A DNA stretch of 63,955 bases, filler included, from Reclinomonas americana ATCC 50394 (Eukaryota), in the NCBI GenBank assembly GCA_048213135.1. It is 14 parts of 14 records of this genome, joined end to end, with 100 filler letters (N's around TTAATTAATTAA, not from the genome) between each part and the next. Parts side by side here need not be neighbours in the genome. Positions count along the whole stretch, not along the records: positions 1 to 11,942 come from AFZH01020883.1; positions 12,043 to 19,598 come from AFZH01020885.1; positions 19,699 to 23,161 come from AFZH01020889.1; positions 23,262 to 24,457 come from AFZH01020890.1; positions 24,558 to 26,638 come from AFZH01020891.1; positions 26,739 to 29,184 come from AFZH01020892.1; positions 29,285 to 31,517 come from AFZH01020893.1; positions 31,618 to 34,379 come from AFZH01020894.1; 6 more parts are not named here. One strand, 5' to 3'. The notes below the pieces were generated by a model. It did no database searches, had not been told where the DNA came from, and worked only from the letters and a program-made list of their open reading frames with translations. Shown here piece after piece: positions 4,086-53,710 of this stretch. The position numbers and the translations under genes were made by a program. How positions within the stretch are numbered: position 1 is the stretch's first letter; each line of letters begins with the position of its first letter.

Positions 4086-4519
4086 GGCCGCCGGGATGTG
4101 TGGCAGGGAGATGGATTGTAGGATTTCGGGTCTGCGCCGAGAATAGTGAGACACTGTCGTTTTCACGTGCGCCAGAGTTGAGCCGCACGCAACAGTTCGA
4201 CTTCTGGTCTGGAGATCTCCCGCAGTGGGCCGAGGAGTTCCATGGCGCGCGGATTCGACCAGGTTTCCGTTTGCTGGAAGAGGGTGAGGGCGGCGCGGGC
4301 CAGCCACATCATCTTGAATTCGTCTGCGGAAGAGGGAGGGTGAGGGGGAAGGAGGGGGAGGGGGAGGGTGAGGGGGAAGGAGGAGAGGGAGGAGACAGGC
4401 ATCATGTGAAGAATCAGCTTCTCTGCTGAACAATAATGAGGAGGGGGGAATAGTGTGAGTGAAAGAAGCACAACAGCGAGAAAGACAGCTGTTGAAAGGC
4501 CCGGGCCACTCAGGTGGAA

Positions 4520-5580
4520 GACGTAAAAGAGGTAGTACCCTGTCGCCAGACGGAGCAGTTCAGAGGAACGAGAGCAGAACAGCCACGGAATTCCCGGCGC
4601 CCGTGAGCGGCAAAGATACAGAAAGAAGCCACTCGGGTGGAACATGTCAGAAAGGTAGCACCCCGTTGCTGGACGGAACAGTTCAGAAGAAAGAGAGCAG
4701 AACAGCCACGGAATTCCAGGCGCCCGTGAGCGGCAAAGATACAGAAAGAAGCCACTCGGGTGAAAGGTGTCACAAAGGTAGCGCCTCGTCACCAGGCGGA
4801 GTAGTTCAGAGTAAAAAGAGCAGAACAGCCACGGAATTCCAGGCGCCCGTGAGCGGCAAAGATACAGAAAGAAGCCACTCAGGAGGAACATGTCAGAAAG
4901 GTTGCGCCCTCTCGCTGGACGGAGCAGTTCAGAGGAACGAGAGCAGAACCGCCACGGAATTCCCAGCGCCAGTTGGCGGCGAAGATACAGAAAGAAGCCT
5001 CTTCGGTGGAACATGTCAGAGAGGTAGCGCCTCGTCGCCAGACGGAGCAGTTCAGAAGAAAGAGAGCAGAACAGCCACGGAATTCCCGGCGCTAGTTGGC
5101 GTCGAAGATGCAGAAAGAAGCCCCTCGGGTGAAAGATTTCAGAAAGGCAGCGCCCAGTCGCCAGACGCTGGAAGCAGGAAGCAAGAGAGAAGAAGAGACA
5201 AAAGTCTTCAACGGACAACAAATGAAACCATGAAGGTAGAAGACTATGACGGAGTCGAAAGCGAACCTCCCTGTCAACAGAAACTGGAAGCAGGAAGCAT
5301 CTCTACCGGGCGATTTAGGGGAAGTTGGGAACGAAAGAAACACAACCGTCGGACTGTAGCCTGAACCCAAGAGAGAGGGGAGTCGAAAGAGAAGTACCCC
5401 GTCGCCAGACACTGGAAGCAGGAAGCTTCTCTGCTGGCGATTAAGAGGAAGGGAGAGATACTTGGGAATGAAAGAAGCACAACCGTCGGACTACAGCCCT
5501 AAATCAAGAGAGAAGGGAGTCGAAAGAGAAGCGCCCTCCCGACAGACACTGGAAGCAGGAAGCATCTCTATGGGCGATCC
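4520..5580. repeat. 123-bp tandem array (about 5 conserved units) grading into more divergent ~115-135-bp units toward the 3' end of the LRR gene
   Basis: CAGAxxAAxxAGAGCAGAACxGCCACGGAATTCC recurs at 4561, 4684, 4807, 4930 and 5053 (period 123). CTGGAAGCAGGAAGC recurs at about 5169, 5284, 5412 and 5549. Confidence 0.95.
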
Positions 5581-7538
5581 AGATCCCGAACAATTCCATG
5601 GTGCCTTTTTCTTCCGAGCAACACGCGCACGCACCTGCTACATCCTTGCCAAACACTCGCGTGAGCGACAGTACCCGGGATTCGGTCAAAATCTGTTCGT
5701 CGAGCAGCACCAGCAACGACATCCAAGCGAAATCCGGGTACGCCGCCAGCGCCTCGGCAATCGGCACTGCGGTGCTCACATTCCACTTGGAGCCGGCCAC
5801 GAAAATATTAACAGCCGTCTCCATCTATAGCAGCTGCGTCAGCACCCTGGCGCACAGAAGAAAGCACGTGCTTGCACATCATCACACGGACCCGCAGTTT
5901 TCGCGGCACCGGGAAATGCAGCACGGAGAACATGAGGATGCCGAGGGCGTCCATTTGCTCACTGGAGAACACCGTGAGGAACGAGAAGGGGCTCTTGTCC
6001 GTGACTTTGAAACTGTGCCCATCATGTCAGTCAGCACACTACACTGCGGAAGCGAACACAGCATCGGAATGACGGACTCAACGACGTCACGAATTGCCCG
6101 TCGGTGTTCAACCGCAGCAGCTCGCACCGCTCAAAGTGGGTGGCGACATATTTGAGTCGCAAGCGATCCACGACTGTGACACAAGTAGGAAATGTTATGC
6201 GTGCATCCCAAGGGAAAAGGAAGTCGACAACAGCAAAACGCACATGGCGACCGAGTGGCCTGGTGGCCAAACTTCTCCAGGAACTCCACTGCCAGCGGCG
6301 CCAGTCGATCCTTATCCAGTGGTCGACCATCGTCGTCTTCGTCGCCACCACTCTGAGCACCCAACGACGCCTCCGCATCACCGATCATCTATCACGACAT
6401 CATAAGCAACACAGTACAGTCGTGCGCAACCGACAGCATGCATGCATGCACACCTGCTGGACGTATGCCGGGTTTGCTTGTGCGAATGCGTGCGCTCGCA
6501 TTCGCTCCTCGTACGTAACGAACTTGCCATCGAGAATCCACACCAGCGGCAACAGATGCACCAGCAGGAGTCGATCTACTCAACACACAGCTTCAGTCTT
6601 GCGGCGAACCAACAAAAGGACTTGACTACGATGCGCAACATTCAACCACCGAGCACAGTGGATTATCGCGCACATCCAGCTCCACAATGTGCACTCGTCG
6701 CAGCCGCAGCACCTCCTCAAACGCCAAGTCATTCCCGCGCAGAATCACCTGTCCCCACGCCCGCACACAGCCCCCACTCAGTGCCTCGGCCACGCGCGTC
6801 AACCGATTATGCGCGGCATCGATATCCCACAGACACAGAGTCGACAGTGGAGCAAAGGTCTCCGCCGGAAGCTCCCGCAACGAGTTCAGCGACACATCCA
6901 GGCGTTCCATTCTCGAAAATATCGATAGATCAGTGCCGCTCATGATATCTGAGTGGAGTGAAATGGTGGGAAAGTGTGAGGAAGTGTGAGGAAGTGTGGG
7001 AAAGTGTGAGGAAGTGTGAGGAAGTGTGTGAAAGTGTGAAGAAGTGTGAGGAAGTGTGAGGGAGTGTGAGAAAGGGTGAGAAAATGTGTGAAAGCGTGCG
7101 CAGTTCTTCTGTCTCTCTCCTGTCTTCTCTCTCTTCTCTCTCACTCTGTGTGCGTGTGTGTTGCTCACCGAGGTTGGCGTTTCGCAGGGAGACTATGCGC
7201 ACGGCATCGGGAGGCGTCGCACTGCCGAGCATGGCCAGCAGTCGCGGCTGAGTCAGCACGCGAGATGAAGGCAACACCGACTGTAGTTGTTGTTGTTGTT
7301 GTTGTTGTTCTGCTGTTGCTTTTGCCTTGGTGCGTGCCTTGGCGCGAGAGGAAGAAGAGGGTGCTGGCGCGAGGACGATTTGTGTGGGCGACGGCACGCG
7401 CAGCTCCAGCATCGCCGAGGTCATTGAGAGCGGAGAGCCGCCGAGCGTCGAGGGTGACATGGGGTCGCCGTCGAGAGAGAGAGGAGAGGGCGGAGGCCTG
7501 TCAGCCTCGGCAGGCGGGACTGCTGCTGCTGCCGACAT
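5504..7538 (-). CDS. Leucine-rich repeat protein with LRRcap (U2A'/SDS22-like), multi-exon
   Basis: ATG 7538. VRIVSLRNANL|..MERLDVSLNSLREL..LWDIDAAHNRLTRV..VILRGNDL..LDVRDNPL is followed by the LRRcap RLLLVHLLPLVWILDGKFVTYEER. The intron near 6946-7168 contains a GAAGTGTGAG 10-mer repeat. Confidence 0.75.
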
Positions 7539-8072
7539 CGCACTTTCACTGATCAACCACCGGGACAAAGCGGGACAGAAAGAGTGCACTCGCGCTGTAT
7601 CGTTTGATATTGGCGGCCAAACAGCATGATGATCACCATTTTGAGTGAGCTCCAGAAGCTGAAACATCACGAGATGCCTGCATGCTGGACGGCTCATGAC
7701 AAACATGGATCTGACGCCGAATTCCAAAAAAAGAAATGCAAGAGGTGTCAGAACACACAAAGAAACCGATGATGGTTGTTGTGGTTGACACCAACAAACA
7801 AGCAACAGCTGTCTTGATGACCAAGTCCAACCACATCCAAAACATCAACACAAAAGCCAATCTTGAAGAAGCAGCTAGCAGGTTTCCTGTGTGTACTAAC
7901 AAGTCGAGAACTGCGATTTTCACCGCATAAACGAGGTCAAACAGTGGACTTGATGCACTTGCATAGTCGCCATAGCATTTTCTGCGATCGTACACGGAAG
8001 CAAAGTCGGGTCCGGATCCGTGAAGCAAGCAATGCAGTGGAGGCGTCGTCAATGGTGGTTGTATGCGGTACA

Positions 8073-11000
8073 TTACTCTTGTTTTGAATTCGCCGACGCA
8101 TTCGCCGGCCGCGGTCGAATCACCGTCGGCGGCAACGCCATACGAGCCACGTGCGTCGACAAATCCTGCTGTGTCAGCATCGACGGCTGTGGACGCCGCC
8201 TGCGTGTTCGGAACTCAATCATGATGTCCCCCTCCGAGGCGATATCCGGACTCCCGGATCTCGACAATTCCTGCGCAAAATGTCAGCTACTTCACGCACC
8301 CTGCTGCGTACCAGAACGCATGCACCCACCTCGGAAGTCGGAACCGCCGAGAATGGCCGCGGAACGTGTGGCATGGAGAAATCCGGTCGCATGAGCGGCT
8401 GCGGAGGGACCGAGCCGACAAACGGCAGTGGGGGCAACGGCCGCTGCGATACATGCATGTCGTCGACATCGCTGGCCTCTTTAGTGGCGGCGACAGGCGG
8501 CGGTGGTCGTCGCGCTGCAGCTGAGTTGACAGTTGTACTCGGCTGCGCATGCACTGGACTACTTATCGAGCTCGACGACACCGACGACGACTGCGTGCGT
8601 CGGTGCACTTTGTTGGGAGACAAATTTCATAAGCACGCGCACGCGCAGAACAATGAGCGTACCTGTTGCGAGGCTCGTGTGGGAGGCGGTGGCAATGGAG
8701 CGCGCGCACGCGAAGCCGACAGCCGTGCAGCAAACAGCTCGACTGCGGCGGCCGTCAGTGGCGGACGTCCCACGCCTGACGCCCCACTCTCCGTGGACGG
8801 GCGTGTCAAGTTCGACTCGACAGCAGAACTCGGCTGCGCACAGCTGCATGTGAGCAACATATCCGCATGTTGCGTCGCGATGCACAATGATGCGCAACAA
8901 CACTCACCGTACTCGATGAAGATGACTGTACCGACGACTGACAGTGAGGAGGCAGAGAGACGAGCGTGAGTCAAAGTAACAACACCAGAAAGCAACCGAG
9001 GTCGAAAAACGCAAGACGCACCGGGTGTGGAACGCGCGAGGGCGGTGGTGGCAGCGGAGCAAGTGCGCGCGATGCAGACAACCGTGCAGCAAATAGCTCG
9101 ACCGCGGCGGCAGTGAGCGGCGGACGTACCGCGCCAGAAGGTCCATGAGCAATGCCGTTCTCAGATGATGGGCGTGCGCTAGGTTCCACACCAGAACTCG
9201 GCTGTAATCGCTGCACGTGAGTGCATGTCCACTTCTGCGAAGCATGAGTGTCGCCGATTCACACTCACCGTACTCGCCGACGACGACTGTGACGATGACG
9301 ATGCCTGTGGGAGACAGGAGGCACTCATTGTGTGAGCCGCACGCAAACTACTCTCAAATACCAATAAAAACATACGTACCGGGTGCGCGACTCGCGAGGG
9401 AGGTGGAGGCAGTGGTGCGAGAGCTCGGGATGCAGACAGCCGCGCAGCAAACATCTCGGCCGCGGCGGCAGTAAGCAACGGACCAGGCGCGCCGTCGCGA
9501 ACGCCACTCTCTGAAGAGGGGCGAGCGGCCGCTGCTGGCGGGCCACGCGGAAGGACGATATGTCGAAGAGAACTCAGCGACGGAATCGCGTGTGGCACGG
9601 GCACCAGGCGCATCGAGGATGCACTTTCCTCCATCGCAGAAGCAGCTCTGGTCGAGTTTCGACGCGGATGCGGCGGCAAGGGAGGCAACGACAGCGTGCT
9701 CGGGAACATCAAGACCGAAGGAGACAACACTCCTCGGCCACCGCTGTCTTGCTGAGCGACGCTGGCCGGATTCGCTGGGCGAATCGTCAGCGGAAGCGGA
9801 ACGACCGGCAGGCCAGCGATGGTGCTGGAGAGCATGGAACTGGGAGTTGGTGCCTCGTTCCGCACTGTGTGACGCACGTGAGGGCCGAGCACCACTGACG
9901 ACACAACAATGCGCCCCACGGTGGCCAAACCATCCAATGGCTCCACCACCGCCGCGTCTGCGTCGGGCATTGTCAGTGTCGTGACGTGCTTCGGCTCCAC
10001 TCGTTCCTCATCAGTAGCCGGTGGCGTCGACGACCACCACAGATCGGGAGACACGACAAACTGCCAGAAAGTAACGGCAACAGGCTGCAGCTGCTCGTCC
10101 TTGCATCGACGACGCCACCGTCGGCGAGCAGCGCACAGGAGACAGCAGCAGCAACAGAACACCAACAGAGCAGCCAGTAGCAGCGATACCAGTACCAGCA
10201 AAGCAATGATTGCTGCAGACACCCCCCCAGCCGCAGTCGATGTCACAACCGGCGATACTAGACACGGAGAAGAAAAAAGTTAGCCAAATACGCTGCACAG
10301 CACGAATGAACGTGCACACGAACCAAAGTAAAATGAGGACGACGAGTACAGCGCGTAGTCCGTCACATTGACGCCAAGCGGGATAACGTATGCGTCAAAG
10401 GTGTCGCCATCGTGCACCAACGGGTCGCCGGCGGTCGAATTGAGGGAGCTGGCGATAAAGCTCACAGAATTGGTGGTATACTGTTGATCTTGAGCCGACG
10501 AACTGCAGCGGCCGTAGACCACATCGCGCAGTGTATAAGTCTCGACCGCCGCCGAGTCGCTCGTCTGCTTGCGCAACTGCAGGCGACATACGATGATTAT
10601 GAGTCAGCGACGGCAAGTTCGACACACACACACGCAGGGCTGCCATACAATGCCTCACCAGAACAGTGAACGCCTGCTGTCCGTTCGGGGCATCACACTC
10701 CCAAGTCACTGTACTGTTGCCATAGAGCGGCAGCTGCAGCTGGAATTCTCGCGTAGACCCAGAAATGATGGAGCGGACCGATGGGACTGCACAACGAGGT
10801 AAGTATGGATGGAAATGCCGCACACCGACTCCGGTGACCGGGATCTCGAGGACGCACATCTCACAGTAAATGACTCGGATCGGCCAACAATTCGCTCGTC
10901 AAACGATCCCTGTCTCGTGCTGTCCGCCACAAGGAAGGTGACGGGAATGTTGCTGTCGATCTGGTTTCTCAGAGATCTAAGCGTGGGGGCCACTGACAGC

Positions 11001-11942
11001 GATACTTGAGAGGCAGGAATGTTTCGAGCAGACACCGCAATGAGACGATTCTCGGCAACTGCAGCGACAAGCGCACACGAGTCAGCTTGGCATGGAACCG
11101 CAGGTATAGACTATCAGAGGACGAGAGCGATTCAGTTACCGTTCCAAAGCTCGACATCCACAAGAGTCACCGACAGCGGTGCACGCCAGGTAACCGACGT
11201 CGCAGTATGACCGTACACGCTGTACACAGCGGTCTCCACCGGCGACGCGGCAGCCACCGTGGGAACAAGCTTGACAACAGGGGCTAATCCACGAAACACA
11301 TACACAAAAGGATAAGCAACCGACAAGAGTAGAGAGCCCGCGAGCAAACACACCTTGATTGATGGTCAACGTCACAACCAGCACACCACCATGGAGATCG
11401 TCAACAGACACATCGATGACAAAGCCTCGACCAGTCAGGTTGTCGACATTGCTGAAGATCGCCGCTCCGGAAATGAAAAACTCGCTCTGTGGGGCGACTT
11501 GGAGTGAGACCAGCATCAGCACAGCGGTACGAGCACTCGACATACCCGATTTGCGCCACCGACGATGCTAAAAATGTGAGACTGACAACAATTCTCGTCC
11601 ACAGCCGACAGCTCGCCAACGAACTCGCCACGACCAAGCGGCAAGCTGAATTCATCGGGTGTAATTCTGATACTGGTCGGCGGCACATTTGCTACGACAG
11701 AAAATTCTGGTGAGTGACACGACGACCGACGGCAAAAAAAGACGCACAAAAAAGCAATACGCATGCACGAAACCTTCATCGACAATGAAAGAGTTGGATG
11801 CCACAGCCATCTCCTGTCCGTCACAAAAGGCACCGACATCGACCTGCAAGCCGTTGCCACGCTGACCGGCCAACTGAAGAGACAGTGCGTGGCCAACAAT
11901 AACAAACAGTGAACTGTCGACACCGCCAACGACGTCAAACGT
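8073..11942 (-). CDS. Single-pass membrane protein with a cadherin-like ectodomain repeat and a triplicated Pro-rich cytoplasmic module; 5'-partial
   Basis: Ectodomain exons VVANVPPTSIRITPDEFSLPLGRGEFVGELSAVDENCCQSHIFSIVGG|..FFISGAAIF..FVIDVSVDDLHGGVLVVTLTI. TM segment AIIALLVLVSLLLAALLVFCCCCC is followed by RRRWRRR. The tail carries three copies of LTAAA(V/A)E(L/M)FAARLSASRAxAPLPPPP. Confidence 0.7.
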
Positions 11943-12101
11943 NNNNNNNNNNNNNNNNNNNNNNNNNNNNNNNNNNNNNNNNNNNNTTAATTAATTAANN
12001 NNNNNNNNNNNNNNNNNNNNNNNNNNNNNNNNNNNNNNNNNNGACAATCGCCCTGCCTGCCTTGTTGTTCGGAAAATTCCGAGGAAACCAGTTTCTTTTT
12101 C

Positions 12102-37561: not shown

Positions 37562-40500
37562 TCATTCTGCCTCCACCACTGTGGCGAAGCCGTTGTCGAG
37601 GACCCGTAGTGCCTCTTCGACTTTGTTGCTGTCCACCAGGAGGAAGTCCTCGGAATACCTGAGAAGTGAAAGGGAAGAGGGATGAGGGGGAAGGAAGAGG
37701 AGAAGAGTGAGGGGAAGGAGAAGAACAACAAGAACGAGCGGAGGGGAAAGGAGAAAGGAGAACAGGGAGAAGTGAGAGGAGATGGGAGAATGGTCATCAA
37801 GACAGCTGTTGCCGGCCGGTTTGTTGGTGAATGCAATGTTATTGAAGGAGAAAAGACAAAGAAAGAAAGCAGAGATGAGAGAGGAGACGGAGACAGGTAA
37901 TAACGGCAGAAAGGAAAGAGAAGCGGAGAACGAGAAGAGAAGAGACGAGTGAAAGGGAAGGACGACGAGTGGGAAATGAGAAAGAAGAAAGGAAGCGAAT
38001 AGACAAAGAGAAGAGAAGAGCGCAACAGTGGATGGGATGGAGGCGAAGAGAAGAAGATATGAGTGAAAGAATGGGAGGAGAAGCAGCGGAGCGCAGAAGC
38101 AAGCACAGGAGGAGAGGAGACATTGCGTACATGGAACAGGAGAAGATGCAGCAAAAAAACGAAGAAATGGAACAGCAGGTGAACACGAATGAGGATGAGA
38201 AAACATGACACGAATAGACGCGAGGAGTAGGACGTCAGGCATCAATGGGTGAGGCGAGGCAAGAAAGGAGAAGCACAGGAGGATGAGGGAAACTAGAGAA
38301 TGCGAGTGTGCGGCGAGGAGACGAAGAAAGAAAGAGGATGGGGGAAACTAGAGAATGCGATAGTGCGGCCAGGAGACGAAGAAAGAAACACACAGTTGAC
38401 GAAAGTGCGGGTTCTCGATCGTTTTTTTCGCGCGAGAGTGGGGCGAAGAGACGAGAAGGAATGCATGAGACGATACCTCGAAGAAAGGAACAGATGGAGA
38501 AGGGAGAAGAAGGAGTGAACCCTCGTTCGTTTTCCTCCATGTGCAGGATGCAGCAAACGAGCGAGGAGATGGGAAGTATTGAAGAGAAAGATGGGAAGAG
38601 GCGTGATGGGAGTCCTGCTTTTCTCTTTCAAACTTGAAGTCCGCTGCTCCCTCCCTTCCCCCTTTCCCCCTTTCCCCCTTTCCCCCTTTCCCCCTTTCCC
38701 CCTTTCCTCTCCCTTCTCCCTTCCCTCCCCCTCTGCACGCAACGTGGACAAGTAGAAAATGGAAATATGATGGCGCGCCAGCGGATTGCTGAGCATGTTG
38801 ACCGAGTGGTCGTCGCCCGAGCCCGACGCCGAGTTGCTCAACCGCATCGGCACCCACGACGACGAGTGCGCGACGAGCTTGTCACGCACTCGTGCCGGCA
38901 GCGACGCCCACCGCTCCTCCTCCACAATCACCGACACGTTCTTCTCGTCCCACGACATGGACAAGAAGTCACTGTTTGACAGGGAAAGTGAGCACGCCGC
39001 ATCTCTCCCTCCGACCCATTTGCAAGGCACGACGCAACCCTTCATCCAGCAAAAAGAGTCGCACAAACTCGGCCAGGCAGTGCTCAAAGAATACAGAGCG
39101 CTCCGCATGCACCGTCATCACCCTCCTCGTCAGCGGCTGCACGACCACGCGCTGCTCCTCCGGCACCGACTCGGCGTCGTCGGCGTCCGTGGCAACTGCC
39201 ACCACCGCGTCCTCTTCCCTGCGCTTGTCGGCCTTGAGTGCTCTGCTCAGGGCCTCGGTGGCCTCGACGAGTTCCTCCTCGCGCACGAGCAGGAGGTCCG
39301 AGTCGACGAGGGAGAGGTAGACGAGGGGGAGGTTGCGTTGGGCGAGGGGGCGGGCGAGGCCGGCGATGAGGCCGGTGGAGCCGAGGAGGTCGACGCCTTC
39401 CTCGACCTGGAGGGTAAAAGGGGAAGGAGTGAGGGAAAGGGGGATAAAGGGGAAGGGAGGGAGGGAAGGGGAAGGGAGGGGGACAAAGGGAAAGGGAGGG
39501 GGAGGGAGAATAAAGAGACAAGAGATAGAAAGAAAAATAAAGACAAGAAGAACGATGGAGTGGTCAAGGGAGAAAGAGGCAAGGCAGCAGGAAGAACAAG
39601 GAGATCAGCGAGAGGGAAAGAAAGACAAAACAAGAACATGACGAGACGAGTAGAGGCTGAGAGAGTGGGAAAGAAAAGACGGGAGCAAGGTAGAAAACAG
39701 GTGAAAGCAAGAACGGAGTGAGTCAGACAGAATGTGTATGTGTGTGTGAGAGAGAGAGAGGAGAGACACGAAGAACGAAACAAAGAGAATAAGTAACTGC
39801 AGTAGAACAAGGACGTCAGGAAGAGGGAATGAAAAACAACATGAACACATGACAAGGCATATTGAGGCCGTGAAGAGGAGAAGAAAGATAGGGAGTGCGC
39901 AAGAAAAGACAGAAGCAAGGCAGAGGACAGGTGAAACAATAGCGGAGTGGGTCAGGCAGAATGAGAGAGAGAGAGGAAAGAAAATAACCAAGGTAGAGAA
40001 AGCAAGGCCTCGGTGACAAGACCTTTGCAAGAAATGACGACAAAAAAGACAGAGGCCAAAAGTGAGAAAGAGAGAAGGAGAGTGGCAGATAGAATGAAGA
40101 GAAAGAGACGAGGCTGACAAAATACACACAACAACACCAACAAAACGAGAAAAGGGTACAGAAGACATCGAGAAACTGAAAGCGCAAGGAAACTGGCACA
40201 GATAGAGAGAGAGAGAGCGCGCGAGAGAGAGAGAGAGGAGGGAGTGGAAGCGAGAGAGACGCACAGAGCTGTCCAGGAAAATGGAGAGAAGCCGGAGACG
40301 GCTACAAAGGCTGCGAGGAAAAGGCAGGGCAGAAAAAGAAACTTGGAGAGCAAACAAGACAGAAAGAAGGAAAGTGAGACCACGAGAAGGACAGCAAGCT
40401 GCAAAGGGACACTGACCGCATAGGTATCGAGAAAGAGAATGACATGGAGTGGAAGCAAGAGAAAGTGGAATGAGAGAGACTGAATAGAACACAGAGAGAG

Positions 40501-41857
40501 AGAGAGACTAAATGGGAGCAGCAAGAAAGGCAGACAAGCAGGACAGGCGGATTGAGAGATAGCCCGCACGCAAGCCGCACAGAGAGCAGAGTGCACAAAC
40601 AAATAGTCTCGCAAGAAACAGGTTCGATATCACCGCCGAAAATACCTTGATGGCGCGATACGAGTCACTGCTCACGACAATGGCACTGCGCGTGTGGCCC
40701 GCTCCCACGGGCACTGGCACGCACTTGCTTTGCGCGGCGCGGACATCGGCGTCGGTCAGCAGCAATGAGAGGCCGCCTTCGTGTGTCCGCGTAATGTTGA
40801 GTACATTTGAGTCACTGCGCGCGCGCGAATGCACGTGAGACACACGGCCGAACGAATGCAGAGAGATGTGGACTTTCGTGGTGCGAGAAGTTGATGTCGT
40901 GCATGGGTTGACAGGCAGGCGAAGAGTGCAGGAAAAGCTGGGCTGCAAGATGAAGATTTAAGGAAGATAGACAACAAGAGTTCAAGGACAAGGATTGAAG
41001 GGGGTTGAGGAACAAGGGCCGAGGGTTCGTAGAAAGGGGGCTTGGGTGCAGAGTTTTGTAGGTAGAGGAGTGTTGGAGGTAGAGGGTCAAGGGCAAAGGT
41101 TGGAGTGCATGAAAAGCTCGTGGAATGGAGGAATTTGAAGAGCGGCGGAGGATATCGGAAACAGGGAATAGTGCAAGAGAATGGAGCACTGTGAGAGACA
41201 GAGAAGGAGTGCAGGCGCTCTTCCAACAGCTCAGAGTGAGAGAAGGGAAAGGAGAGCGAAAGGGAGATTCTCGTCAGCTCAGAGTGAGAGAAGGGAAAGG
41301 AGAGCGAAAGGGAGATTCTCGTGCGCGAGGAGAGTCGCCCGACCAAACATGCAATAAACAGAAAGAGCGAAAGAGGAGGAGGGAAGGAGAGAGGAGGGAA
41401 GAATGCTTTCAGAGGAGACACACTTGACTGAGAGAGAAGCAGGGGAGAAAAAGGGAAAAGAGTTCCGGAATCGAACACACGGCGTTGTTGTGATTGAGGG
41501 TTGGGAGGTGCATGCCACTCACTCATTCTCTCACGCACACAGACACACACAGACACGCACACACACTTCCTCACTCTCACATTGAGCAAGCACGGAGAAA
41601 TGCCACTGCAGTCAAAAAGAGACAAACTCTTTTCTCTCGAGTCCTCTTCTCACACACACATACACACAGCACCTTCTCTGCCTCTTTCTCTCTCTGTGTG
41701 AGAGTGTCTCCAGAGAGAGAGAGAGATGGACTCACCCGTGATAGAGCACATGCAACACGCCGAGAGCCGCGTGTGACACGTGCACGGGAGACACCGCGCA
41801 GAGGGAGAGTGTCTGGGTGAGTTGGCGCGAGGAGAGCGCAGGAAAGCGGGTTTGCAT
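37562..41857 (-). CDS. CASTOR/GATS-like tandem ACT-domain protein (exons 41857-41736, 40814-40646, 39406-~39033, ~38970-38744, ~37658-37562)
   Basis: Hand-splice is in phase. YRAIK|VEEGVDLLGSTGLIAGLARPLAQRNLPLVYLSLVDSDLLLVREEEL and VNMLSNPLARHHISIFYLST|YSEDFLLVDSNKVEEALRVL are two CASTOR_ACT signatures, each preceded by an N-type ACT-like segment. Confidence 0.8.
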
Positions 41858-42364
41858 GAGGAGGAGGTGTTCTCTTCGCGTGTGAGAAGTGGGAGACTTT
41901 TTTCGTGGTCGAAGATGCGGAGATTCCAATTATTGGCAGCTCTTTTTATTGGTTTTTTAAGGTGGCTGTGCAGGTGTGGAGGTGGGGGTGTATGAGAGAG
42001 TGTGGCGTGTGTGTGAGAGACAAGACAGCTGGCACTGCGGGGAGGTCGAGACAAGAAAGCGAACGCGACGTCGACGTCGAGAGTTTCTTGCTGCTTTCTT
42101 GGCGAGGGAGGAGGTGAAGGTGCTGCTGCAGGGAGGTCTGTGAGTGGCGCTGGTACATGCGCGTGAAAGTAGAGTGCATTTGGAGTCGTCGACGTCGCTG
42201 CAGAGTGTGCACTTGCTTTGTTGGCGATGTTTGAGGCGTGCACGAACACACTGGTTGGTTCGTCATCGGGGTCTGCAGGCAGTTCAAGAGGTTGCAAGCT
42301 GGTCACTGCATAGTCCTGTCATGCAAGTGTTAGTTTGTCAGAGGACCTGTCAGAGTGCACAACG
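41858..42364. promoter_or_regulatory. Probable bidirectional promoter between the CASTOR-like gene and the Ank-kinase gene
   Basis: The head-to-head ATGs are about 500 bp apart. CCAAT-T-ATTGG (CCAAT on both strands) lies at 41926-41936. Confidence 0.4.
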
Positions 42365-44584
42365 ATGGGTGCGGCGAAAGCGTGGAAGCTGGCGCAAGAG
42401 GGCGATGTGAAGGGACTGCGCAAGTTGGTGAAGAGCAAGGGTGCACAGACTCTGCTGAAGAGAGAGGAGATGGATGAGGGTGGCCTCTCGGCATTTTATT
42501 TTGCCGCTTCACGAGGCCATCTCTCTGTGTTGGAGTATTTGTGGGAGGAAAGTGGTGTCGGGCCACAACTCGCACAAATGGTCGACGACTATGGGTGGAC
42601 GCCACTGATGATGGCTGCCATCAATGGGCGTCTGCAAGTGGTGGAGTGGTTGCTTGCCGATGAGCAACGATGTCCGCCGGAGATGGTGCGGGCGGTTACC
42701 AAAGAAGAACAGTCCACTGCACTGCATTATGCTGCATTGTATGGCAAAGTAGCCATCGTGCGACTCCTCGCCACTCGCTTTCCCGACCTCATTCCCATGG
42801 TCAACAAGCGGGGCAAGACGGCGGCTCAATGGGCAGGCGGCAATAAGAAGCAAGTGGCCGAGTTACTCGGCCGCCTCGCTGCGCAGCCAGCACCACCACC
42901 TCGCCAACAACAACCACCGCAACAACAGCTACGCCCTGCTGCCTCCTCTCCATCCCCTAGGCCTCCATCACCGCCTCCGCGACAAGGTGTGACTCTTCTG
43001 CTGATGCGGACGCTCTCTCTTCCTGCTCGCTCACGCGTACGCTCTCCTCGCCCCATGCGCCTATCTGCATGACACACAGTTCCGGCGCGGCAGGTGAGAC
43101 TGACGCGCTTCTATCGCATCTGGTATGCACCGCGTGATTCCCGTCTCTCATGCTCTTGCTCTCCATGTGCAGGCTTCTGCACCGGTGGCTGCCAACGACG
43201 CCCCCGTGGCCCGCCAGCTTGCCGAGAAGGAAGCACTCAACGCCCAACTTCAGCGCGACCTCGCCGCAGCGCAGCAACAACAACAAGAGTGGGAACGGCA
43301 GCGACGAGAACATGAAAGCGCCGTGGCTCAGCTTCAACGAACAAACGCAGGGCTCCAACAGAGCAAAGCCGAGGCGGAGCAGAGGAGCACCCAACAGCAG
43401 CGATCGATCGAGGAGCTGCGGCAACGCAGCGCAGAGGAACACCAGAGGAACGTGCAAATGCAGCGTGTCAACGAGGAGCTGCAACTGAGCAACGCTGAAG
43501 TGCACCGGAGGAACGAAGAGCTGCAGCTGTCCAACGGAGAGCTGCAGCAACGCAACACTGAGGAACACCAGAGGAACGGAGAGCTGCAGCGACGCCTTTC
43601 TGAGGAGCAGCAGAGGAACGCTCAACAGCAGCGAACCATTACAGATCTCCAGCAACGCAGCGCAGAGGAGCAGCAGAGGAACGCGCAGTTGCAGCAAGGC
43701 AACACCCAGCTCCAAGCCGAACGGGATAGAGTCGTCTCTCTTTTGACTGTGGCTCTGCGTGACAAGGACGACCTCGCCGCGCAGCTGCAAGAAAAGGATC
43801 AACTCGTCTCCCAGTTGCGACAGGACCTCCTCCTCGCCCAAGGTCTGTCTCTCGTCCTGTTTCTTCGTGATGATGTGCTTCCGTGTTCTGTTCTGTGTCC
43901 TTTGTTCTCTCCATTTCTCATTTCCATTGACTTCCGCAGTCGACACCGCCGTGCAGCGTTTCGATTGGCCCGAGATCGTGCACGCCACCGACTCGTTCTC
44001 CCCACGCCTCAAGGTCGGCGAGGGTGGTCAGGGTGCCGTATTCATCACTTTGCTTCGCGAGATGCATGTGGCCATCAAGGTGCTCGACCCCGAGGCACCA
44101 TGGACGATGGAGTCGTTTGAGAGTGAGGTCTGTGTCTCTCTCTCTCTTCTGTTTCTCTCTATCTCTCTTTCTCCTCATTCTTCTCTTTTTCAGGTGGCCA
44201 CCCTCGGACGCCTGCGTGACCGTCGTATTGTGCCTCTTGTTGGCTACTCGGTAGGCGACGACAAGGCACGCTGTCTCGTGTACAAGGCCCTGCAGTGCGT
44301 GTTCATCTCTCTCTCTCATCAGTCATCGTCTCACTGAGGGAGCACACAGAATCCCCAACCTGGAAGATCTGTTGCTGCTGCCACGCGCCGGTCGTGCGCC
44401 ACTCACGGTCGTGCAGCGTGTGCAGATCGGCCTCGGGCTGGCCGAGGCCGTGGTGTTCTTGCACAAGGTCAGCTGGAAGAGAATGCCTTCTGCATCTTTC
44501 ATTCTTCCTCTGAGGCAGCCTTGCTCTCTTTGCTTGCACTACTTTCTCTCCTGTCGCTCACTTTGCCGTTCTCGTCTCTTCTTG

Positions 44585-44615
<31 letters not shown>

Positions 44616-45525
44616 GTCTCCTTCCTGATGTGCTTCCTGCATCGTGTCTCGCCTCGCCGTGCTTGTACTCGTTTCTCTTCTGTCACTCACTTTGCTGTTC
44701 GCTCCCAGTCCCACGTGTTCTCTACTACTCTCCCTCTCTCTTTCTCTCTCTTTCTCTCTCTCTCTCTTTCTGTCTGTCTGTCTTTCTGTGTCTGTCTGTC
44801 TGTCTGTCTGTCTGTCTTTCTTGTCTCCTCTCTCTCTCTCTCTTTCTGTCTGTGTGTCTCGCTCTGTCGCTTTCTCTTTCTCTAACTCTCGAGCTCTCTG
44901 TGTCTCTCTCTCTCTGTCTCTCTCTCTCTCTCTCTGCACCTCCCTGTTGTATTTTTCATGGTTTCTCCCTCGCCTCACTCACCTCCTCCCTCGCAGAATA
45001 ATGTCGTGCACCGCGACATCAAGCCCTCCAACGTGCTTCTCGATCACCGCTTCGAGCCATGCATTGGTGACTTTGGCATCGCAAGGTCGATTGCCGGAGG
45101 CAAGGTCTGCTCTTCTCTTCTCTTCCCTCTCTTTCTCGCCCTCGCTCACTCTCTCATCTCCCAAGTCAACTCCCGCCGCCGGCACGCCCGACTACATGGA
45201 CCCACTGGCCATTCGCGCTCGGCACCCCCTCCCGGAGCACGACGTCTACAGTATGGGCGTCGTGTTGGTGCAGCTGGTCACCACCAAACCGGTTGTGACG
45301 GTGGGCGAGTGGTCCCTCGCGTGGGATCGCTCGCCAGCCTCACTGCGCGTGATGGAGTTGGTGGACGGTGGAGTGGAGTGGACTCCGCGCATCGCCGAAC
45401 CGATGTTCGAACTCGGCATGCGATGCATGAGCGTGCGACGAGACAGACCGACGGCACAAGAGGCACTCGATGTGATGCGCTCGGTGCGCGAGGCGTGTGG
45501 GCAGTTCACGCTGGTTATTGATTGA
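42365..45525 (+). CDS. Ankyrin repeats + Gln-rich coiled coil + IRAK/Pelle/RLK-family protein kinase
   Basis: Ankyrins: GWTPLMMAAINGRLQVVEWLL. Kinase: QRFDWPEIVHATDSFSPRLKVGEGGQGAVF..VAIKVL..FESEV..LVGYS..CLVYK..VHRDIKPSNVLLD..IGDFGIAR..AGTPDYMDP..DVYSMGVVLVQLVT. All catalytic motifs are intact. Confidence 0.9.
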
Positions 45526-45748
45526 ATTGAAGGCAATGGTTGTGAGCTGAGAGTGGTGCCCGCTGGCGACTGTTTTCTTGGTCTCGAGCTCGATATCAAC
45601 GTCGCGACGTCGATCGGCATTCCTTCCCCGTTCCTCCTCCTGCTCCCTCCCACTGATGATCACCAAGCACCCACTTACTGCACTTGCAACGACTGCCACT
45701 CTTCTCACCACGCACAACGTCGCCTCCACACAGGACACTCACTCCCAA

Positions 45749-46130
45749 ATGATCACGCCGCGCTTTGATCATGAGTGCTCCCAAGATGACGACTACATCG
45801 TTACTCTCTCTCTCCTCTTGTCTGTCCCACTGCCTCTCTCTCACGTACTTTGACACACACAGACGGTCCTCATCCACGTCTCCCTCGTCCGCACACAAGA
45901 AATGGATTTCTACATCAGCGCTGCGGGCGCGAATTCAAATTCTACGTGCGCCCCTACTTTCTGCGCCTCCTCTTCCCCCACGAATTGGCCGACAATTCCG
46001 CACCACCAGAAGCAGAAGGAGCGCTGCAGGCAGAGACCACATACGACCCTGGCGCAGGCACAGTGAGTGTGCGATTGCCCAAGGCGGAACGCGGTCGCTT
46101 CTTTCCCGGATTGCACATGCATAGTGCCTA
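45749..46130 (+). pseudogene. SHQ1: SHQ1 5' duplicate, copy 1 (frameshifted)
   Basis: MITPRF..SQDDDYI plus the CS-domain exon, with a 6-nt insertion in exon 1 and a 5-nt insertion (ATCAGCGCTGCGGGCGCG vs ATCAGCGGGCGCG) in exon 2. Confidence 0.8.
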
Positions 46131-46334
46131 TGTGAGAGCAACAATATCGATCAAGCATTGACATTTCGATATCAACGTCGCGACGTCGAACGGCATTCCT
46201 TCCCCGTTCCTCCTCCTGCTCCCTCCCACTGATGATCACCAAGCACCCACTTACATTCTGCACTTGCAACGACTGCCACTCTTCTCACCACACAAGAAAC
46301 GTCGCCTCCACACAGGACACTCACTCACAACGAA

Positions 46335-46710
46335 ATGATTACCCCGCGCTTTGAGTGCTCCCAAGATGACGACTACATCGTTACGCTCTCCCCCTGAGTG
46401 TCTCTCTCTCTCTCTCTTTCTCTCACCCTTTGACACACCCACTGACAGACGGTCCTCATCCACGTCTCCCTCGTGCGCACACAAGAAATGGATTTCTACA
46501 TCAGCGGGCGCGAATTCAAATTCTACGTGCGCCCCTACTTTCTGCGCCTCCTCTTCCCCCACGAATTGGCCGACAATTCAGCACCACCAGAAGCAGAAGG
46601 AGCGCTGCAGGCAGAGACCACATACGACCCTGGCGCGGGCACAGTGAGTGTGCGATTGCCCAAGGCGGAACGCGGTCGCTTCTTTCCCGGATTGCACATG
46701 CTTAGTGCCT
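46335..46710 (+). pseudogene. SHQ1: SHQ1 5' duplicate, copy 2 (intact CS domain only, runs into the next repeat unit)
   Basis: MITPRFECSQDDDYI|TVLIHVSLVRTQEMDFYISGREFKFYVRPYFLRLLFP..YDPGAGTVSVRLPKAERGRFFPGLHMLS, then reads through to TGA at 46949. Confidence 0.65.
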
Positions 46711-46945
46711 ATGGTATAGCCGCTGCTCTCTCCCTTCCATCACAAAAGGTCGAGTCTAAGTACAACGAAAGCATTGACATTTCGATATCAACGTCGCGAC
46801 GTCGATCGGCATTCCTTCCCCGTTCCTCCTCCTGCTCCCTCCCACTGATGATCACCAAGCACCCACTTACATTCTACACTTGCAACGACTGCCACTCTTC
46901 TCACCACACACAAACGTCGCCTCCACACAGGACACTCACTCCCAA

Positions 46946-48288
46946 ATGATCACTCCGCGCTTTGAGTGCTCCCAAGATGACGACTACATCGTTACGCTCT
47001 CCCCCTGAGTGTGTGTGTGTCTCGCTCTCTCTTTCTCTCACTTTGACACAGACGGTGCNNNNNNNNNNNNNNNNNNNNNNNNNNNNNNNNNNNNNNNNNN
47101 NNTTAATTAATTAANNNNNNNNNNNNNNNNNNNNNNNNNNNNNNNNNNNNNNNNNNNNCGAGGCCAAGAGGCTGCAGCGCGCGACCGCCGGCGCCGCCGC
47201 CGCTGCCACCACCGAGAGCGACGAAAGTGCCGATCCCGACACCCGCTACGCCGCGACATTTCCGTGGACCGAGCCGGAGACCAAGACCATGTTGGCGCTG
47301 CCGAAAAAAGAATGTGCGTGCGCTCGCGTGTTTTCCTCTTTTTCTCCTGTTCCTTCTCACACTCGCGCGCGCGCGCGCGCACGCAGTCCTCGTGGAGAAC
47401 CCGCGCGTCCTGTACGTGGGCCTGGTGGATCTGCTCTTCGCCTACTGCTACAATCACCGCGTGACCGGCGGCGAGAACACGGTCGAGTCGGCGTGGACCA
47501 TTTGTACGCTGTCGTCGACGCTGTCGTGGTTGGATGTTGCGTGTGATTGCGCCCCGACGTGGTCCCTCGGGTCGTGGGGGAGCAACTGACGATATGCGTG
47601 CCAGGTGTTCTCCGACGTGGAGGAGTGCGTGGTCAGCTGCTTCCGACGAGCACTCTCCTATCCGTTGTATCGGCATTTCGGCTTGTGTGAGACGGTGAGC
47701 AGAAGAAGGAGTGTGGGGCGGTTTGGAGACGATGCCATAATTATGCATTTGTGCAGGTGCTCCGTGACGTGGCGACTGTGCTTTCGCTCGGACTGCCAAG
47801 GTGAGTAGCATTGGGGAGTTTCAGCGTGATGAAAGGTGACAGCGCATGATGTGAAGGGATGGTGAGAAGAGGGAGAAGAGGGGGAGAGACGTCGTAAGCT
47901 GCGATTGTTCTTCATGGCTTGCTTTGTTTTGGATCTCACTCTGTGCTGCGCCAGCGTCCTGCGATGTCTGCTGGAGATTCGCTACATTTTCGAGCACTCG
48001 GAGCCGCGCTACATTCTCAACAAGCTCTACATTGACGACTACTGCATTTGGATACAATCGCTGCGGTTTGTGTACAGTGGCGCACACTTCAAGTGGCAAG
48101 GGCCTTATCTCTCCCTCTCCTCCCACAGGTCTGGAAGTCTCAGACCGCTGCTGGAGCGAGTAGAGGCGTGTCACGTGAGCAAGGAGAGCATCGAGTGGCC
48201 GCTGGAGGCACTCGAATCGATTGCGGCAGAGGGAGGTGGAGAGGAGGAGGAGGAGGATATAGAGGAGCAGGACATAGAGGAGCGATGA
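46946..48288 (+). CDS. SHQ1: H/ACA snoRNP assembly chaperone SHQ1 (probable full-length copy, interrupted by a gap)
   Basis: Third MITPRFECSQDDDYI start. After the gap: GLVDLLFAYCYNHRVTGGENTVESAWTICTLSSTLSWLD, FRRALSYPLYRHFGL and RYILNKLYIDDYCIWIQ, which are SHQ1 domain motifs. Confidence 0.9.
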
Positions 48289-48389
48289 GGCGGAAAAAAG
48301 CGTTTGTAGACTGGCAAGGGTGATGAGGGAGTCTGCGGCTGAGTGCACTGGTTGCGAGTGAGAAAGAGAGAGAATGAGAAGAAGGCAAT

Positions 48390-50135
48390 CAAAGTTACAG
48401 TGTGCTGCGATTGTCCTTTCCTCCTCTCCTCTTCTCTCTCACACATGGAGCCACAATCGCTCTTTGTGCGCAGCATACAACCTGTACTCGCACGCAAACA
48501 GGCTCGCAAACGCCTGCTGAGTGCACTCTTTGCCAGTGTGCGACGCGCGAGTGAGGCCGTGTGTGCGATTGTTGAGAAGCAGCGGAGAGGCGGAGAAGGC
48601 GATGGAGATGGAGAAGAAGGGGAGGAGAATGGGGAGAGAATGGTAGGAGAAGAAGAAGAAGAAGAAGAAGAAGAAGAAGAAGAAGGCGATTACTGGTTGC
48701 AATACAGGAGCAATCAATGTTACAGTGTGCTGCGATTGTCCTTTGCTCCTCTCCTCTTCTCTTCTCTCTCACATGGAGCCACAATCGCTCTTTGTGCGCA
48801 GCATACAACCTGTACTCGCACGCAAACAGGCTCGCAAACGCCTGCTGAGTGCACTCTTTGCCAGTGTGCGACGCGCGAGTGAGGCCGTGTGTGCGATTGT
48901 TGAGAAGCAGCGGAGAGGCGGAGAAGGCGATGAAGGAGATGGAGAAGAAGTGGAGGAGAATGGGGGGAGAATGGTAGGAGAAGAAGAAAGGCGATTACTG
49001 GTAGCAATACAGGTGCAATCAATGATACACTGCGATTGTCCTTTCCTCCTCTCCTCTTCTCTCACACACATGGAGCCACAATCGCTCTTTGTGCGCAGCA
49101 TTCAACCTGTGCTCGCACGCAAACAGGCTCGCAAACGACTGCTGAGTGCACTCTTTGCCAGTGTGCGACGTGCAAGTGAGGCCGTGTGTACATGTGCGAT
49201 TGTTGAGCAGCAGCGGAGAGGCGGAGAAGGCGATGGAGATGGAGAAGAAGGGGAGGAGAATGGGGGGGAGAATGGTAGGAGAAAGAAGAAAGGCNNNNNN
49301 NNNNNNNNNNNNNNNNNNNNNNNNNNNNNNNNNNNNNNTTAATTAATTAANNNNNNNNNNNNNNNNNNNNNNNNNNNNNNNNNNNNNNNNNNNNAAACAG
49401 GCTCGCAAACGACTGCTGAGTGCACTGTTTGCCAGTGTGCGACGTGCGAGTGAGGCCGTGTGTGCGATTGTCGAGCAGCAGCGGAGAGGCGGCGGAGAAG
49501 GCGAAGGCGATGGAGAAGAAGGGGAGGAGAATGGGGGGAGAATCGGAGGAGAAGAAAAAAGGCGATTACTGGTTGCAATACAGGTTATAATTACAGTGTG
49601 CTGCGATTGTCCTTTCTTCCCTCTCACACATGGAGCCACAATCGCTCTTTGTGCGCAGCATACAACCTGTACTCGCACGCAAACAGGCTCGCAAACGACT
49701 GCTGAGTGCGCTCTTTGCCAGTGTGCGACGTGCGAGTGAGGCCGTGTGTGCGATTGTTGAGCAGCAGCGGAGAGGCGGCGGAGAAGGCGAAGGCGATGGA
49801 GAAGAAGGGGAGGAGAATGGGGGGAGAATGGTAGGAGAAGAAGAGGCGATTACTTGATGCAATATAATACAGGTTACAATGTGCTGCGATTGTCCTTTGC
49901 TCCTCTCCTCTTCTCTCTCTCTCACATGGAGCCACAATCGCTCTTTGTGCGCAGCATTCAACCTGTACTCGCCCGCAAACAGGCTCGCAAACGACTGCTG
50001 AGTGCACTCTTTGCCAGTGTGCGACGTGCGAGTGAGGCCGTGTGTGCGATTGTTGAGCAGCAGCGGAGAGGCGGAGAAGGGGATGATGGAGATGGAGAAG
50101 AAGGGGAGGAGAATGGGGGGAGAATGGTAGGAGAA
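48390..50135 (+). repeat. ~300-330-bp tandem array (at least 6 units), each copying the upstream sequence and start of exon 1 of the dynamin-like gene
   Basis: ATGGAGCCACAATCGCTC at 48445, 48773, 49070, 49630 and 49926, plus a partial unit at 49395. Each encodes MEPQSLFVRSIQPVLARKQARKRLLSALFASVRRASEAV. Confidence 0.95.
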
Positions 50136-53100: not shown

Positions 53101-53710
53101 ACCGCCTGCCACAGGACCGCCGTGCCCGCTGTGGTGGAGGATCGAGTGCGCGAGGGTCTCCGACAGATTGTGGCCGAGGATGCATTTCGCGCCGCCATTG
53201 TAGTCGAAGTGGACAGCGCGGTCATGCGTGGACAATTTAGCGTGCGTGCACAGCTTAGTTGCCTCATGTCTTGTTTCTCGTGACTAACCTCCATACTCAT
53301 GCAGTCCGTACCTGCCGGCGTTCGAAAGCGAGACCACACGAACCAGATCATTTGGGGGATTGTTCACAGACAGGTCTCGTCGCGTGGAAGAACCTTCTGC
53401 TTGTGCGCATTTCGCCTCACTACCCTCCCCTCGCAGTTGGAACAATCTCTGCAAGTGCCGGTCATTGTGGGGCAAGTGGTGGGCGCGGCGGTGGCGCGCG
53501 GTCGTGACCAGGTGCAAGCGTACCTCGACGAACTCGGCGACGGTCACTCGGCGACTCTTGCGCGTGTTTTGCAGGATGCATTTGGAGCGGGTACCGAACT
53601 TAGTGGTCCCGAGTTTCAGTGGGAGCTGGTCGGTGGCGTCAGCGGCGCAGGTGGTTCAATTGGCATGACTTTGCTGACGATTGGAGCGTTTGCGACGTCG
53701 GCGGAAACGG
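49926..53710 (+). CDS. Dynamin-like (Dynamin_N/BDLP/mitofusin-type) GTPase, N-terminal part of a multi-exon gene
   Basis: Exon 1 is 49926-50246 (phase 0), exon 2 starts at 51040, then a GC-AG intron 51103-51172 and an intron 51211-51271. This gives G1 IGRTNTGKSTLWNAFLG, G2 ACT, G3 VIDSPG, ADGIIYIID and a G4-position FLVNLWQ, then helical exons and the hydrophobic segment LVGGVSGAGGSIGMTLLTIGAF. Confidence 0.85.

Follow-up and report, generated by a model that had tools for sequence, protein, structure and literature searches.

Partial gene copies beside genes of Reclinomonas americana: placement of tandem arrays and silent divergence at two gene starts

In the window analyzed here, 63,955 nucleotides of Reclinomonas americana ATCC 50394 joined from 14 assembly records with filler (gaps) between them, pieces of genes are repeated beside the genes themselves, which raises the question whether duplication in this genome is directed to gene ends or only survives there. 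The initial annotation described terminal gene copies at five unrelated loci and attributed them to a local duplication mechanism that is biased to, or only tolerated at, gene ends. The observation is partly confirmed and the interpretation partly supported. Tandem partial gene copies are present at a winged-helix-like gene (locus 2), at SHQ1 (locus 4) and at a dynamin-like GTPase-kinase gene (locus 5) but not at the LRR gene (locus 1) or the ankyrin genes (locus 3), and the loci are not all unrelated, given that loci 4 and 5 flank a single gene, SHQ1.

Terminal copies of three genes

At locus 2, the 3' end of the gene is repeated downstream.

17790..18128, minus strand: winged-helix-like gene, last codons and 3' flank, in three decayed copies (alignment)
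18242..18559, minus strand: last coding exon of the winged-helix-like gene (codon model; weak HTH_IclR match, E 0.002, below the cut-off)

The approximately threefold repetition originally reported here is borne out by three copies with 76-88% identity to the gene end. Copy 2 has accumulated 6 silent and 8 replacement changes and one frameshift, and copies 3 and 4 are nearest to one another (0.91).

At locus 4, the upstream region and first exons of SHQ1 occur three times, as initially described, in copies that are 87-88% identical.

45590..46165, plus strand: SHQ1 copy 1, with upstream region, exon 1, intron 1 and exon 2 (alignment)
46166..46781, plus strand: SHQ1 copy 2, with upstream region, exon 1, intron 1 and exon 2 (alignment)
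46782..47058, plus strand: SHQ1 copy 3, presumably where the working gene begins (alignment)
47159..48287, plus strand: remainder of SHQ1 with the Shq1 domain, on the next contig (Pfam PF04925)

The units finish in or just past exon 2, the limit at this locus being the end of the CS domain. Copy 1 carries a 6-nt in-frame insertion, a 5-nt frameshift and an altered donor base, the frame of copy 2 is unbroken across the whole CS domain, and copy 3 runs into a gap after 7 bases of exon 2, so that the intact gene is presumed here rather than seen. A search of metagenome contigs with SHQ1 exon 2 yielded no homologue.

At locus 5, the upstream region and part of exon 1 of the dynamin-like gene form six units, in agreement with the original count of at least six, with a gap inside the array.

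48385..49872, plus strand: five partial copies, D1-D5, with ~85 bp of upstream sequence and codons 1 to ~70 of exon 1 (alignment)
49926..50246, plus strand: complete exon 1, 107 codons, with a GTGAGT donor, in the sixth unit, D6 (codon model; Dynamin_N and weak kinase matches downstream)

The ATGs of the partial copies are at 48445, 48773, 49070 and 49630, and D4 is cut by the gap at 49295-49394. D1-D5 stop at codon ~70 of 107 and lack the exon 1 donor, which is found (at 50247) in D6 only; exon 2 is placed at 51040. The unit spacings are 328, 297 and 296 nt, and the read-through frames of the copies differ and score as non-coding. A homologue search with the dynamin-like exon produced no match. 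A single type accounts for the four assembled junctions: GAGAAG microhomology is accompanied by a 22-nt filler, 9 nt of which match the local flank, a marginal similarity equaled by 6.4% of random 22-mers. The junctions at the other loci are decayed or unreadable.

Repeated copying outward from the gene, as pictured initially, does not agree with these arrays: the single junction type at locus 5 and the mutual similarity of the winged-helix copies suggest one founding event followed by later expansion. The location of the intact gene at the edge of the array follows from geometry, because any duplication across a start or a stop forces that layout.

The LRR and ankyrin loci

At locus 1, the 3' end of the LRR gene was thought to grade into a 123-bp array. 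The repeats sit, instead, in what is probably the last intron, followed by the probable terminal exon, and are not copies of the latter.

4163..4323, minus strand: LRR gene, probable true terminal exon with 2 nt and 53 codons including TGA (acceptor, phase, codon model)
4324..5634, minus strand: LRR gene, probable last intron, which contains the repeats of locus 1 (G/GTGCGT donor, pyrimidine tract, CAG acceptor)
4505..5200, no strand assigned: 123-bp tandem array (5.4 copies, without indels, no codon bias)
5251..5578, no strand assigned: 128-137-bp units with a core in common with the 123-bp array
5635..5824, minus strand: penultimate exon of the LRR gene (splice sites, codon model)

On the minus strand, the donor at 5634 and the pyrimidine tract with the acceptor at 4324 enclose the repeats, and the 161-nt exon 4323-4163 carries the LRR frame on to the TGA, its best frame being in register. 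The codon model scores this exon as coding (+0.173 per base), compared with an intron-like -0.152 for the read-through 5632-5510. This read-through seems to be the gene end that the initial annotation had taken. The LRR label comes from weak Pfam LRR_1/LRR_8 matches upstream, below the cut-off.

The array matches at 84% over 4505-5167, with pairwise identity of 80-88% among its units, which have no match above shuffles in the LRR exons and no codon bias in any of the six frames. Interpretation as coding repeats was considered and rejected: a frame is open on each strand, but the silent changes, 11 of 40 and 13 of 40, compare with expected shares of 27% and 24%. The codon-model score of the array (-0.02) is at the top of those of intron chunks (mean -0.27, maximum 0.03), and a remote coding origin is conceivable. 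Rfam gave no matches in the window at the gathering score, so that identity of the array with a known RNA is unsupported. Homologue searches with the LRR exon found no match; with the terminal exon, there were three, which covered no more than 23-28 of the 52 residues and were set aside; two of the three were rich in repeated stretches. An in-frame TAG at 5825-5827 was considered as a sign of a changed genetic code and, by eye, rejected as such: it fits a splice acceptor, and the standard code leaves two ankyrin frames of >600 codons open.

Locus 3 contains three ankyrin paralogs, arranged head-to-tail.

19699..20190, minus strand: ankyrin paralog A, truncated by a gap after exon 1 and the beginning of exon 2 (aligned to paralogs B and C)
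20257..20510, minus strand: frameshifted ankyrin 3' fragment with its own stop (alignment)
20703..23691, minus strand: ankyrin paralog B, with a gap in intron 1 (Pfam Ank; alignment)
23873..27061, minus strand: ankyrin paralog C, with two gaps in introns (Pfam Ank; alignment)

The 3' fragment reported at this locus does exist, but it lies inside the three-paralog array, where a paralog's end would precede gene A. In the best-aligned block, it is closer to the distant paralog C (96/113) than to the adjacent B (89/113); C and B score almost alike over a wider block (140/185 against 138/185), and B has the edge in the 5' part (43/61 versus 40/61). The fragment is a 3' relic within a whole-gene array.

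Placement of the arrays and divergence of the copies

In the 13 hand-annotated spacers of the window, copies make up 3230 of the 5617 intergenic bases (~58%). Partial copies are present in four spacers, and the nine copy-free ones are only 55-510 bp long. With spacers so short, a duplication of a few hundred bases that survives between genes will almost always include a gene end. The 12 non-simple arrays in harmless positions divide into 4 at gene ends and 8 in introns, whereas 3.2-4.0 are expected at ends under placements that spare the gene (P 0.40-0.61). Duplication is not enriched at gene ends in this window, although the count, from one window, 12 arrays and hand annotation, has low power and is compatible with a modest end bias. 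Thus, the ‘only tolerated' half of the initial proposal fits the data, and the ‘biased to' half is unsupported. The null is built on 12 of 24 clusters, leaving out 10 simple or short-period repeats and two further arrays inside coding sequence. Three copies of a gene-internal unit served as a control.

8658..9483, minus strand: gene-internal tandem array, three 359-bp units that include exons and introns

A window-wide excess of motifs consisting of X, its reverse complement and X again (42 versus ~14 expected) was dismissed as a specific signal because the control, with the complement in the middle, is equally raised (17 versus 6.5).

The 5' copies at loci 4 and 5 are not decaying as pseudogenes do, and their differences are biased toward silent ones. 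The term ‘decayed copies', apt for locus 2, is wrong for codons 1-48 of the dynamin-like copies, where 9 of 10 substitutions are silent and one is a replacement (P 3e-5 to 9e-5 versus a neutral 25-28%). Through codon 38, each of the 8 substitutions is silent, as are all 5 private substitutions of D3-D5 in codons 1-48, and the sole insertion there is 6 nt long. Silent differences that mark individual copies fall in codons 11, 14, 16, 23, 27, 28, 34, 35 and 43. Codons 49-70 contain several replacements and a +1 G in D3 (by eye). Among the SHQ1 copies, 6 of 7 substitutions are silent, and copies 1 and 2 differ mostly by silent changes although copy 1 is frameshifted. A phrase search of open-access full texts, a weak probe, found no literature on recurrent gene-end arrays or silent-only first-exon copies.

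A toy-scale simulation was run with 200 chromosomes, one of the six copies being under lethal selection and copies being replaced whole. Exchange between chromosomes at 2Nc of 100-300 resulted in 83-91% silent differences, and exchange within a chromosome in almost no differences. In this model, silent bias can arise without copy function if polymorphic homologous chromosomes refresh the copies.

Origin of the arrays

The explanation that we favor, with moderate confidence, is ordinary local tandem duplication combined with survival wherever a whole gene stays, the spare 5' copies being functionless and refreshed from homologs. In this intron-rich eukaryote, short tandem duplications (~100-600 bp) would arise all along the DNA, probably through error-prone break repair, and some would then be expanded by unequal exchange. 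Duplications within exons would mostly be lost, and those that fall in long introns or span the start or end of a gene would spare one whole gene and survive. With spacers of ~55-500 bp, the intergenic survivors would nearly always include a piece of exon and be bordered on one side by the whole gene. In the two young 5' arrays, the extra copies presumably have no job of their own, and unequal crossover or conversion between polymorphic homologs may copy working alleles into the spare slots, leaving mostly silent differences; this exchange step assumes sufficient heterozygosity and exchange rate. That the share of arrays at gene ends agrees with the null and that intronic and gene-internal arrays outnumber them supports survival as the only filter.

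The silent-only divergence of the 5' copies separates three ideas, namely, alleles captured from homologs, haplotypes stacked by the assembler and working extra starts. It is unlikely that the copies work, each as a promoter with a shortened first exon that is spliced from a cryptic in-frame donor to the shared exons or encodes a short N-terminal protein, with its codons under selection. The silent excess in codons 1-48, including the private changes of D3-D5, and the 6-nt insertion would fit such a role, as would the in-frame GT sites after codons 31 and 38, cryptic donors only, that are retained in all five ATG-bearing dynamin-like copies, and the intact CS-domain frame of SHQ1 copy 2. However, the native donor is absent, codons 49-70 carry replacements and the +1 G, the C-terminal read-throughs are dissimilar, with non-coding scores, SHQ1 copy 1 has a frameshift, the peptides are too nearly identical for diversification of the UGT1 or protocadherin kind, and between-homolog exchange produces the same bias without function in the toy simulation. 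The broader notion that such copies are selectively kept at many unrelated genes (here, the dynamin-like kinase and SHQ1), as redundant alternative starts or short N-terminal regulators, is similarly improbable; if true, added starts could raise or tune expression with no copy made of the gene itself, which would be a novel way for a microbial eukaryote to gain dosage or promoter diversity.

We also doubt that the assembly inflated the arrays, with two or few real copies per haplotype and diverged haplotypes stacked in tandem, so that several ‘copies' would be working alleles with silent differences. Each of the two young arrays has a gap inside, and false duplications often flank a gap (PMC9516828), but within contigs there are four distinct junction sequences plus the beginning of another at locus 5, and two at locus 4, whereas a diploid with a two-copy array gives only two junction alleles. 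Moreover, each flanking contig alone holds three units, and loci 1-3, 75-88% diverged, are within single contigs. Even if the number (four to six at locus 5) were inflated, the partial duplicate would stay real. We consider it very unlikely that mutation is directed to the starts and ends of transcription, via open chromatin, R-loops or polymerase collisions, and repeatedly copies termini outward. The abundance of partial copies in the spacers speaks for such a process, as does the finding that the two units at the greatest distance from the intact D6, namely D1 and D2, are also the most different from it (5 sites versus 2-3); against the process are the lack of excess above the survival-only null, the intronic position of locus 1, the whole-gene array at locus 3 and the common junctions and copy-to-copy similarity that indicate one event per locus with later expansion.

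Several known systems invite comparison. Polymerase theta end joining is reported to leave microhomology and templated filler where tandem duplications join (PMC7368036), and the head-to-tail copies here, with the GAGAAG motif and the marginally matching filler at locus 5, may resemble its products (also PMC4912351), fold-back insertions being reminiscent of templated extension in cis; the worm duplications, however, span 1 kb to 1 Mb in repair mutants, whereas here the units are short. The variable-first-exon clusters UGT1 and protocadherin (PMC1885805, PMC3325998) likewise consist of tandem promoter and first-exon units upstream of shared exons, but theirs are complete exons with their own donors encoding different proteins, whereas the dynamin-like units are truncated, without the native donor, and their N-termini hardly differ (1 replacement in 10). 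Gene conversion between working genes and non-working copies (PMC3924837) shows that paralog exchange can repair or preserve dead copies, a likeness to the first-exon arrays that depends here on the toy simulation. The gaps inside two arrays, one each in loci 4 and 5, and the allele-like silent differences would fit false heterotype duplication of the kind known from draft assemblies (PMC9516828), but several distinct junctions, and indeed most of them, lie inside contigs.

The arrays at loci 2, 4 and 5 look like members of an already known kind, partial gene duplicates, which comprise 21-53% of young duplicates in worm and flies and about 7% in yeast (Katju 2012, PMC3449122); the oddity is the silent-only difference in the two gene-start arrays. 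As in that class, part of a gene is duplicated with its flank and the breakpoint falls inside the gene, at loci 2 and 5, at the CS-domain end at locus 4 and not at locus 1. The differences are the 120-600 bp units, the 3-6 head-to-tail copies and the involvement of several genes in 64 kb; the parent copies named here are presumptive, that source asking for an outgroup to tell ancestral from derived copies. Under the favored combination of duplication and survival, a compact, duplication-prone genome would accumulate partial gene copies in its spacers without any need for targeting, and false exons and split genes are to be expected when such genomes are annotated.

Distribution of tandem copies

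All results refer to this one window, which is eukaryotic and intron-rich and consists of 14 contigs connected by 13 fixed 100-base joining spacers. Self-alignment of the window produced 24 local clusters; with 10 simple or short-period repeats and two clusters inside coding sequence left out, 12 arrays were kept, four of these at gene ends and eight in introns. The initial annotation had proposed a copying mechanism biased to gene ends. Under a null in which duplications are placed wherever genes stay intact, with gene-sparing placements (those touching a spacer or lying wholly within one of 30 long introns) counted for each unit length, 3.97 of the 12 arrays are expected at gene ends when the arrays are collapsed and 3.21 at their present lengths, so that the four observed are no excess (P for four or more, 0.61 and 0.40, respectively). 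With 12 arrays in one window, this is a small test, and a modest gene-end bias is compatible with it. Copies do dominate the 13 intergenic spacers, as had been claimed (3230 of their 5617 bases), and the long introns (∼21.5 kb) are a larger home of repeats than the spacers. The location of the whole gene at one edge of an array follows from the geometry of duplication.

Repeats found elsewhere in the window include:

8658-9483 (-): 359-bp unit in three copies, each spanning exons and introns, splice sites kept, within the tail of a probable membrane protein gene
60254-60882 (-): intronic minisatellite, 20-bp unit, 31 copies
57482-57929 (-): intronic minisatellite, 19-bp unit, 18 copies
43344-43703 (+): coding repeats of 63/126 bp that keep the frame, located where an ankyrin-kinase gene encodes its coiled coil

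Arrays and fragments near gene 3' ends

Gene and intron limits come from hand annotation of the sequence and are accurate to a few bases. Pfam confirmed ankyrin, SHQ1 (CS and Shq1 domains) and Dynamin_N in the window; the LRR and winged-helix names correspond to weak matches, below the cut-off.

The 123-bp array at the LRR gene had been taken for terminal-exon copies, a reading that did not hold. On the minus strand, the array and its 128-137-bp sister units are flanked on one side by a G|GTGCGT donor (position 5634) and on the other by a pyrimidine tract and CAG (position 4324). The units match no LRR exon, and in the open sense frame of the five units compared, 11 of 40 changes are silent, in line with the neutral expectation. 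The codon model, trained on 15 exons of the window, gives held-out exons a per-base score of +0.16 to +0.35; for 87 intron chunks the mean is -0.27 and the maximum +0.03. The predicted splice leads from a 190-nt phase-1 exon to a 161-nt last exon, which ends with TGA 77 bp from the next gene and scores +0.173 per base; read-through beyond the donor scores -0.152 and the array itself -0.02. Homolog searches for the LRR exons found none confirming this splice. An intronic position, as predicted from the splice signals and the codon model, is the best reading of the array and makes it a control against the gene-end finding.

Three copies of the final codons plus 3' flank were confirmed downstream of the winged-helix-like gene, with 76-88% identity. 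Copy 2 carries six silent changes, eight replacements and one frameshift, and copies 3 and 4 are mutually closest (0.91 over 46 bases), so that at least one copy derived from another copy.

The ankyrin locus consists of three head-to-tail paralogs (A, B and C), ∼70% alike; the apparent small gene between them is the first exon of each paralog. The 3' fragment is present and frameshifted, has its own stop, and is placed where a paralog end would precede gene A. In the best block, it shares 15 sites with the distant paralog C alone and eight with the adjacent paralog B alone (identity 96/113 and 89/113, respectively); over a wider block, B and C are level, and B is closer in the 5' part. The relic of a lost paralog appears to fit better than a stutter of B. 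Two observations touch this locus:

20514-20531: perfect 8-bp inverted repeat with a 2-base loop at the outer edge of the fragment, possibly another fold-back junction
20232-20244: 13 bases upstream of paralog A, identical to 46140-46152 at the SHQ1 copy 1/2 junction, either by chance or as a promoter word

Silent differences among copies of gene starts

The arrays at the SHQ1 and dynamin-like kinase gene starts are both real but cannot be considered unrelated because both flank one gene. SHQ1 is represented by three units, 576-616 bp long. The first copy is frameshifted, the second keeps its frame across the CS domain, and the third is cut off by a gap after 7 bases of exon 2, so that the intact SHQ1 gene is presumed. 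The dynamin-like array has six units of ∼300 bp, with a gap within it. The complete exon 1 (49926-50246) has a tail in which G begins 47 of the last 59 codons and which the codon model scores as coding; the five upstream units comprise codons 1 to ∼70 only, without the native donor. Homolog search for this gene found none. Additional features at these loci and at contig ends are:

49926-55093 (+): GTPase domain of dynamin type with a kinase-like domain after it, an arrangement reminiscent of DSTYK
19510-19598 and 31490-31517: run-on short patterns at contig ends, resembling low-quality pyrosequencing read tails

If these patterns are read tails, sequencing errors may account for homopolymer differences, for example the additional G of the third upstream unit.

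A silent bias of the 5' copies was overlooked in the initial annotation. Among the six dynamin-like units, nine of the 10 substitutions in codons 1-48 are silent, compared with 25-28% expected (P of 3e-5 to 9e-5), including all five private substitutions of the third to fifth upstream units. The low-complexity linker (codons 49-70) shows ∼4-6 replacements and two silent changes, counted by eye, which weakens the bias without abolishing it. Of seven coding substitutions in the SHQ1 copies, six are silent (a script was used for exon 2; exon 1 was read by eye). The older loci show no comparably strong bias (silent, 6 of 14 at the winged-helix-like gene and 11 of 23 at the ankyrin locus).

Origin of the copies

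The account we favor, with somewhat better than even confidence, is that break repair would create the first duplication and unequal exchange would afterwards multiply the unit, with the silent bias arising without working copies. At the dynamin-like locus, GAGAAG is common to both ends, and the junction includes a filler of 22 nt, 9 nt of which match the nearby flank; the match is marginal, being equalled by 6.4% of random 22-mers. Comparable junctions are among those described for polymerase theta repair (PMC7368036). Expansion by unequal exchange is suggested by the junction type common to the units. In a toy simulation of six copies with selection on the last only, between-chromosome exchange (2Nc 100-300) left 12-15 silent and 1-3 replacement differences, and within-chromosome exchange erased nearly all differences. 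Silent bias thus needs no working copies, provided that the organism is polymorphic, and working alternative starts, to which the bias might otherwise point, seem improbable. Inflation of the arrays by haplotypes is about equally unlikely: the dynamin-like units could number four if both contigs overlap as haplotypes, and four distinct junctions lie inside contigs. Least probable is a duplication process targeted to ends. The general claim of the initial annotation fails: three of the five loci fit the original description, and no special mechanism is required to explain where they lie.

The 5' arrays outwardly resemble the variable first exons of UGT1 and protocadherins, but two features that define those systems, complete exons with donors and different products, are absent here. 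Phrase searches of the literature turned up no paper on gene-end arrays that recur within a genome or on first-exon copies that differ at silent sites only, which is weak evidence of absence. Partial gene duplicates are described as a known and common class (PMC3449122), to which the copies at the winged-helix-like, SHQ1 and dynamin-like genes appear to belong, with the silent bias as one testable oddity.

In the SHQ1 and dynamin-like copies, seven insertions of at least 4 bases that are not part of simple repeats were found by eye. One is ambiguous, and four others follow the pattern X, its reverse complement, X:

45766, 45918, 49187 and 49585: pattern perfect in three, with 3 bases; last part of 2 bases in the other

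Window-wide, an excess of this motif is not specific. The insertions look like fold-back synthesis or a footprint of hairpin-type excision.
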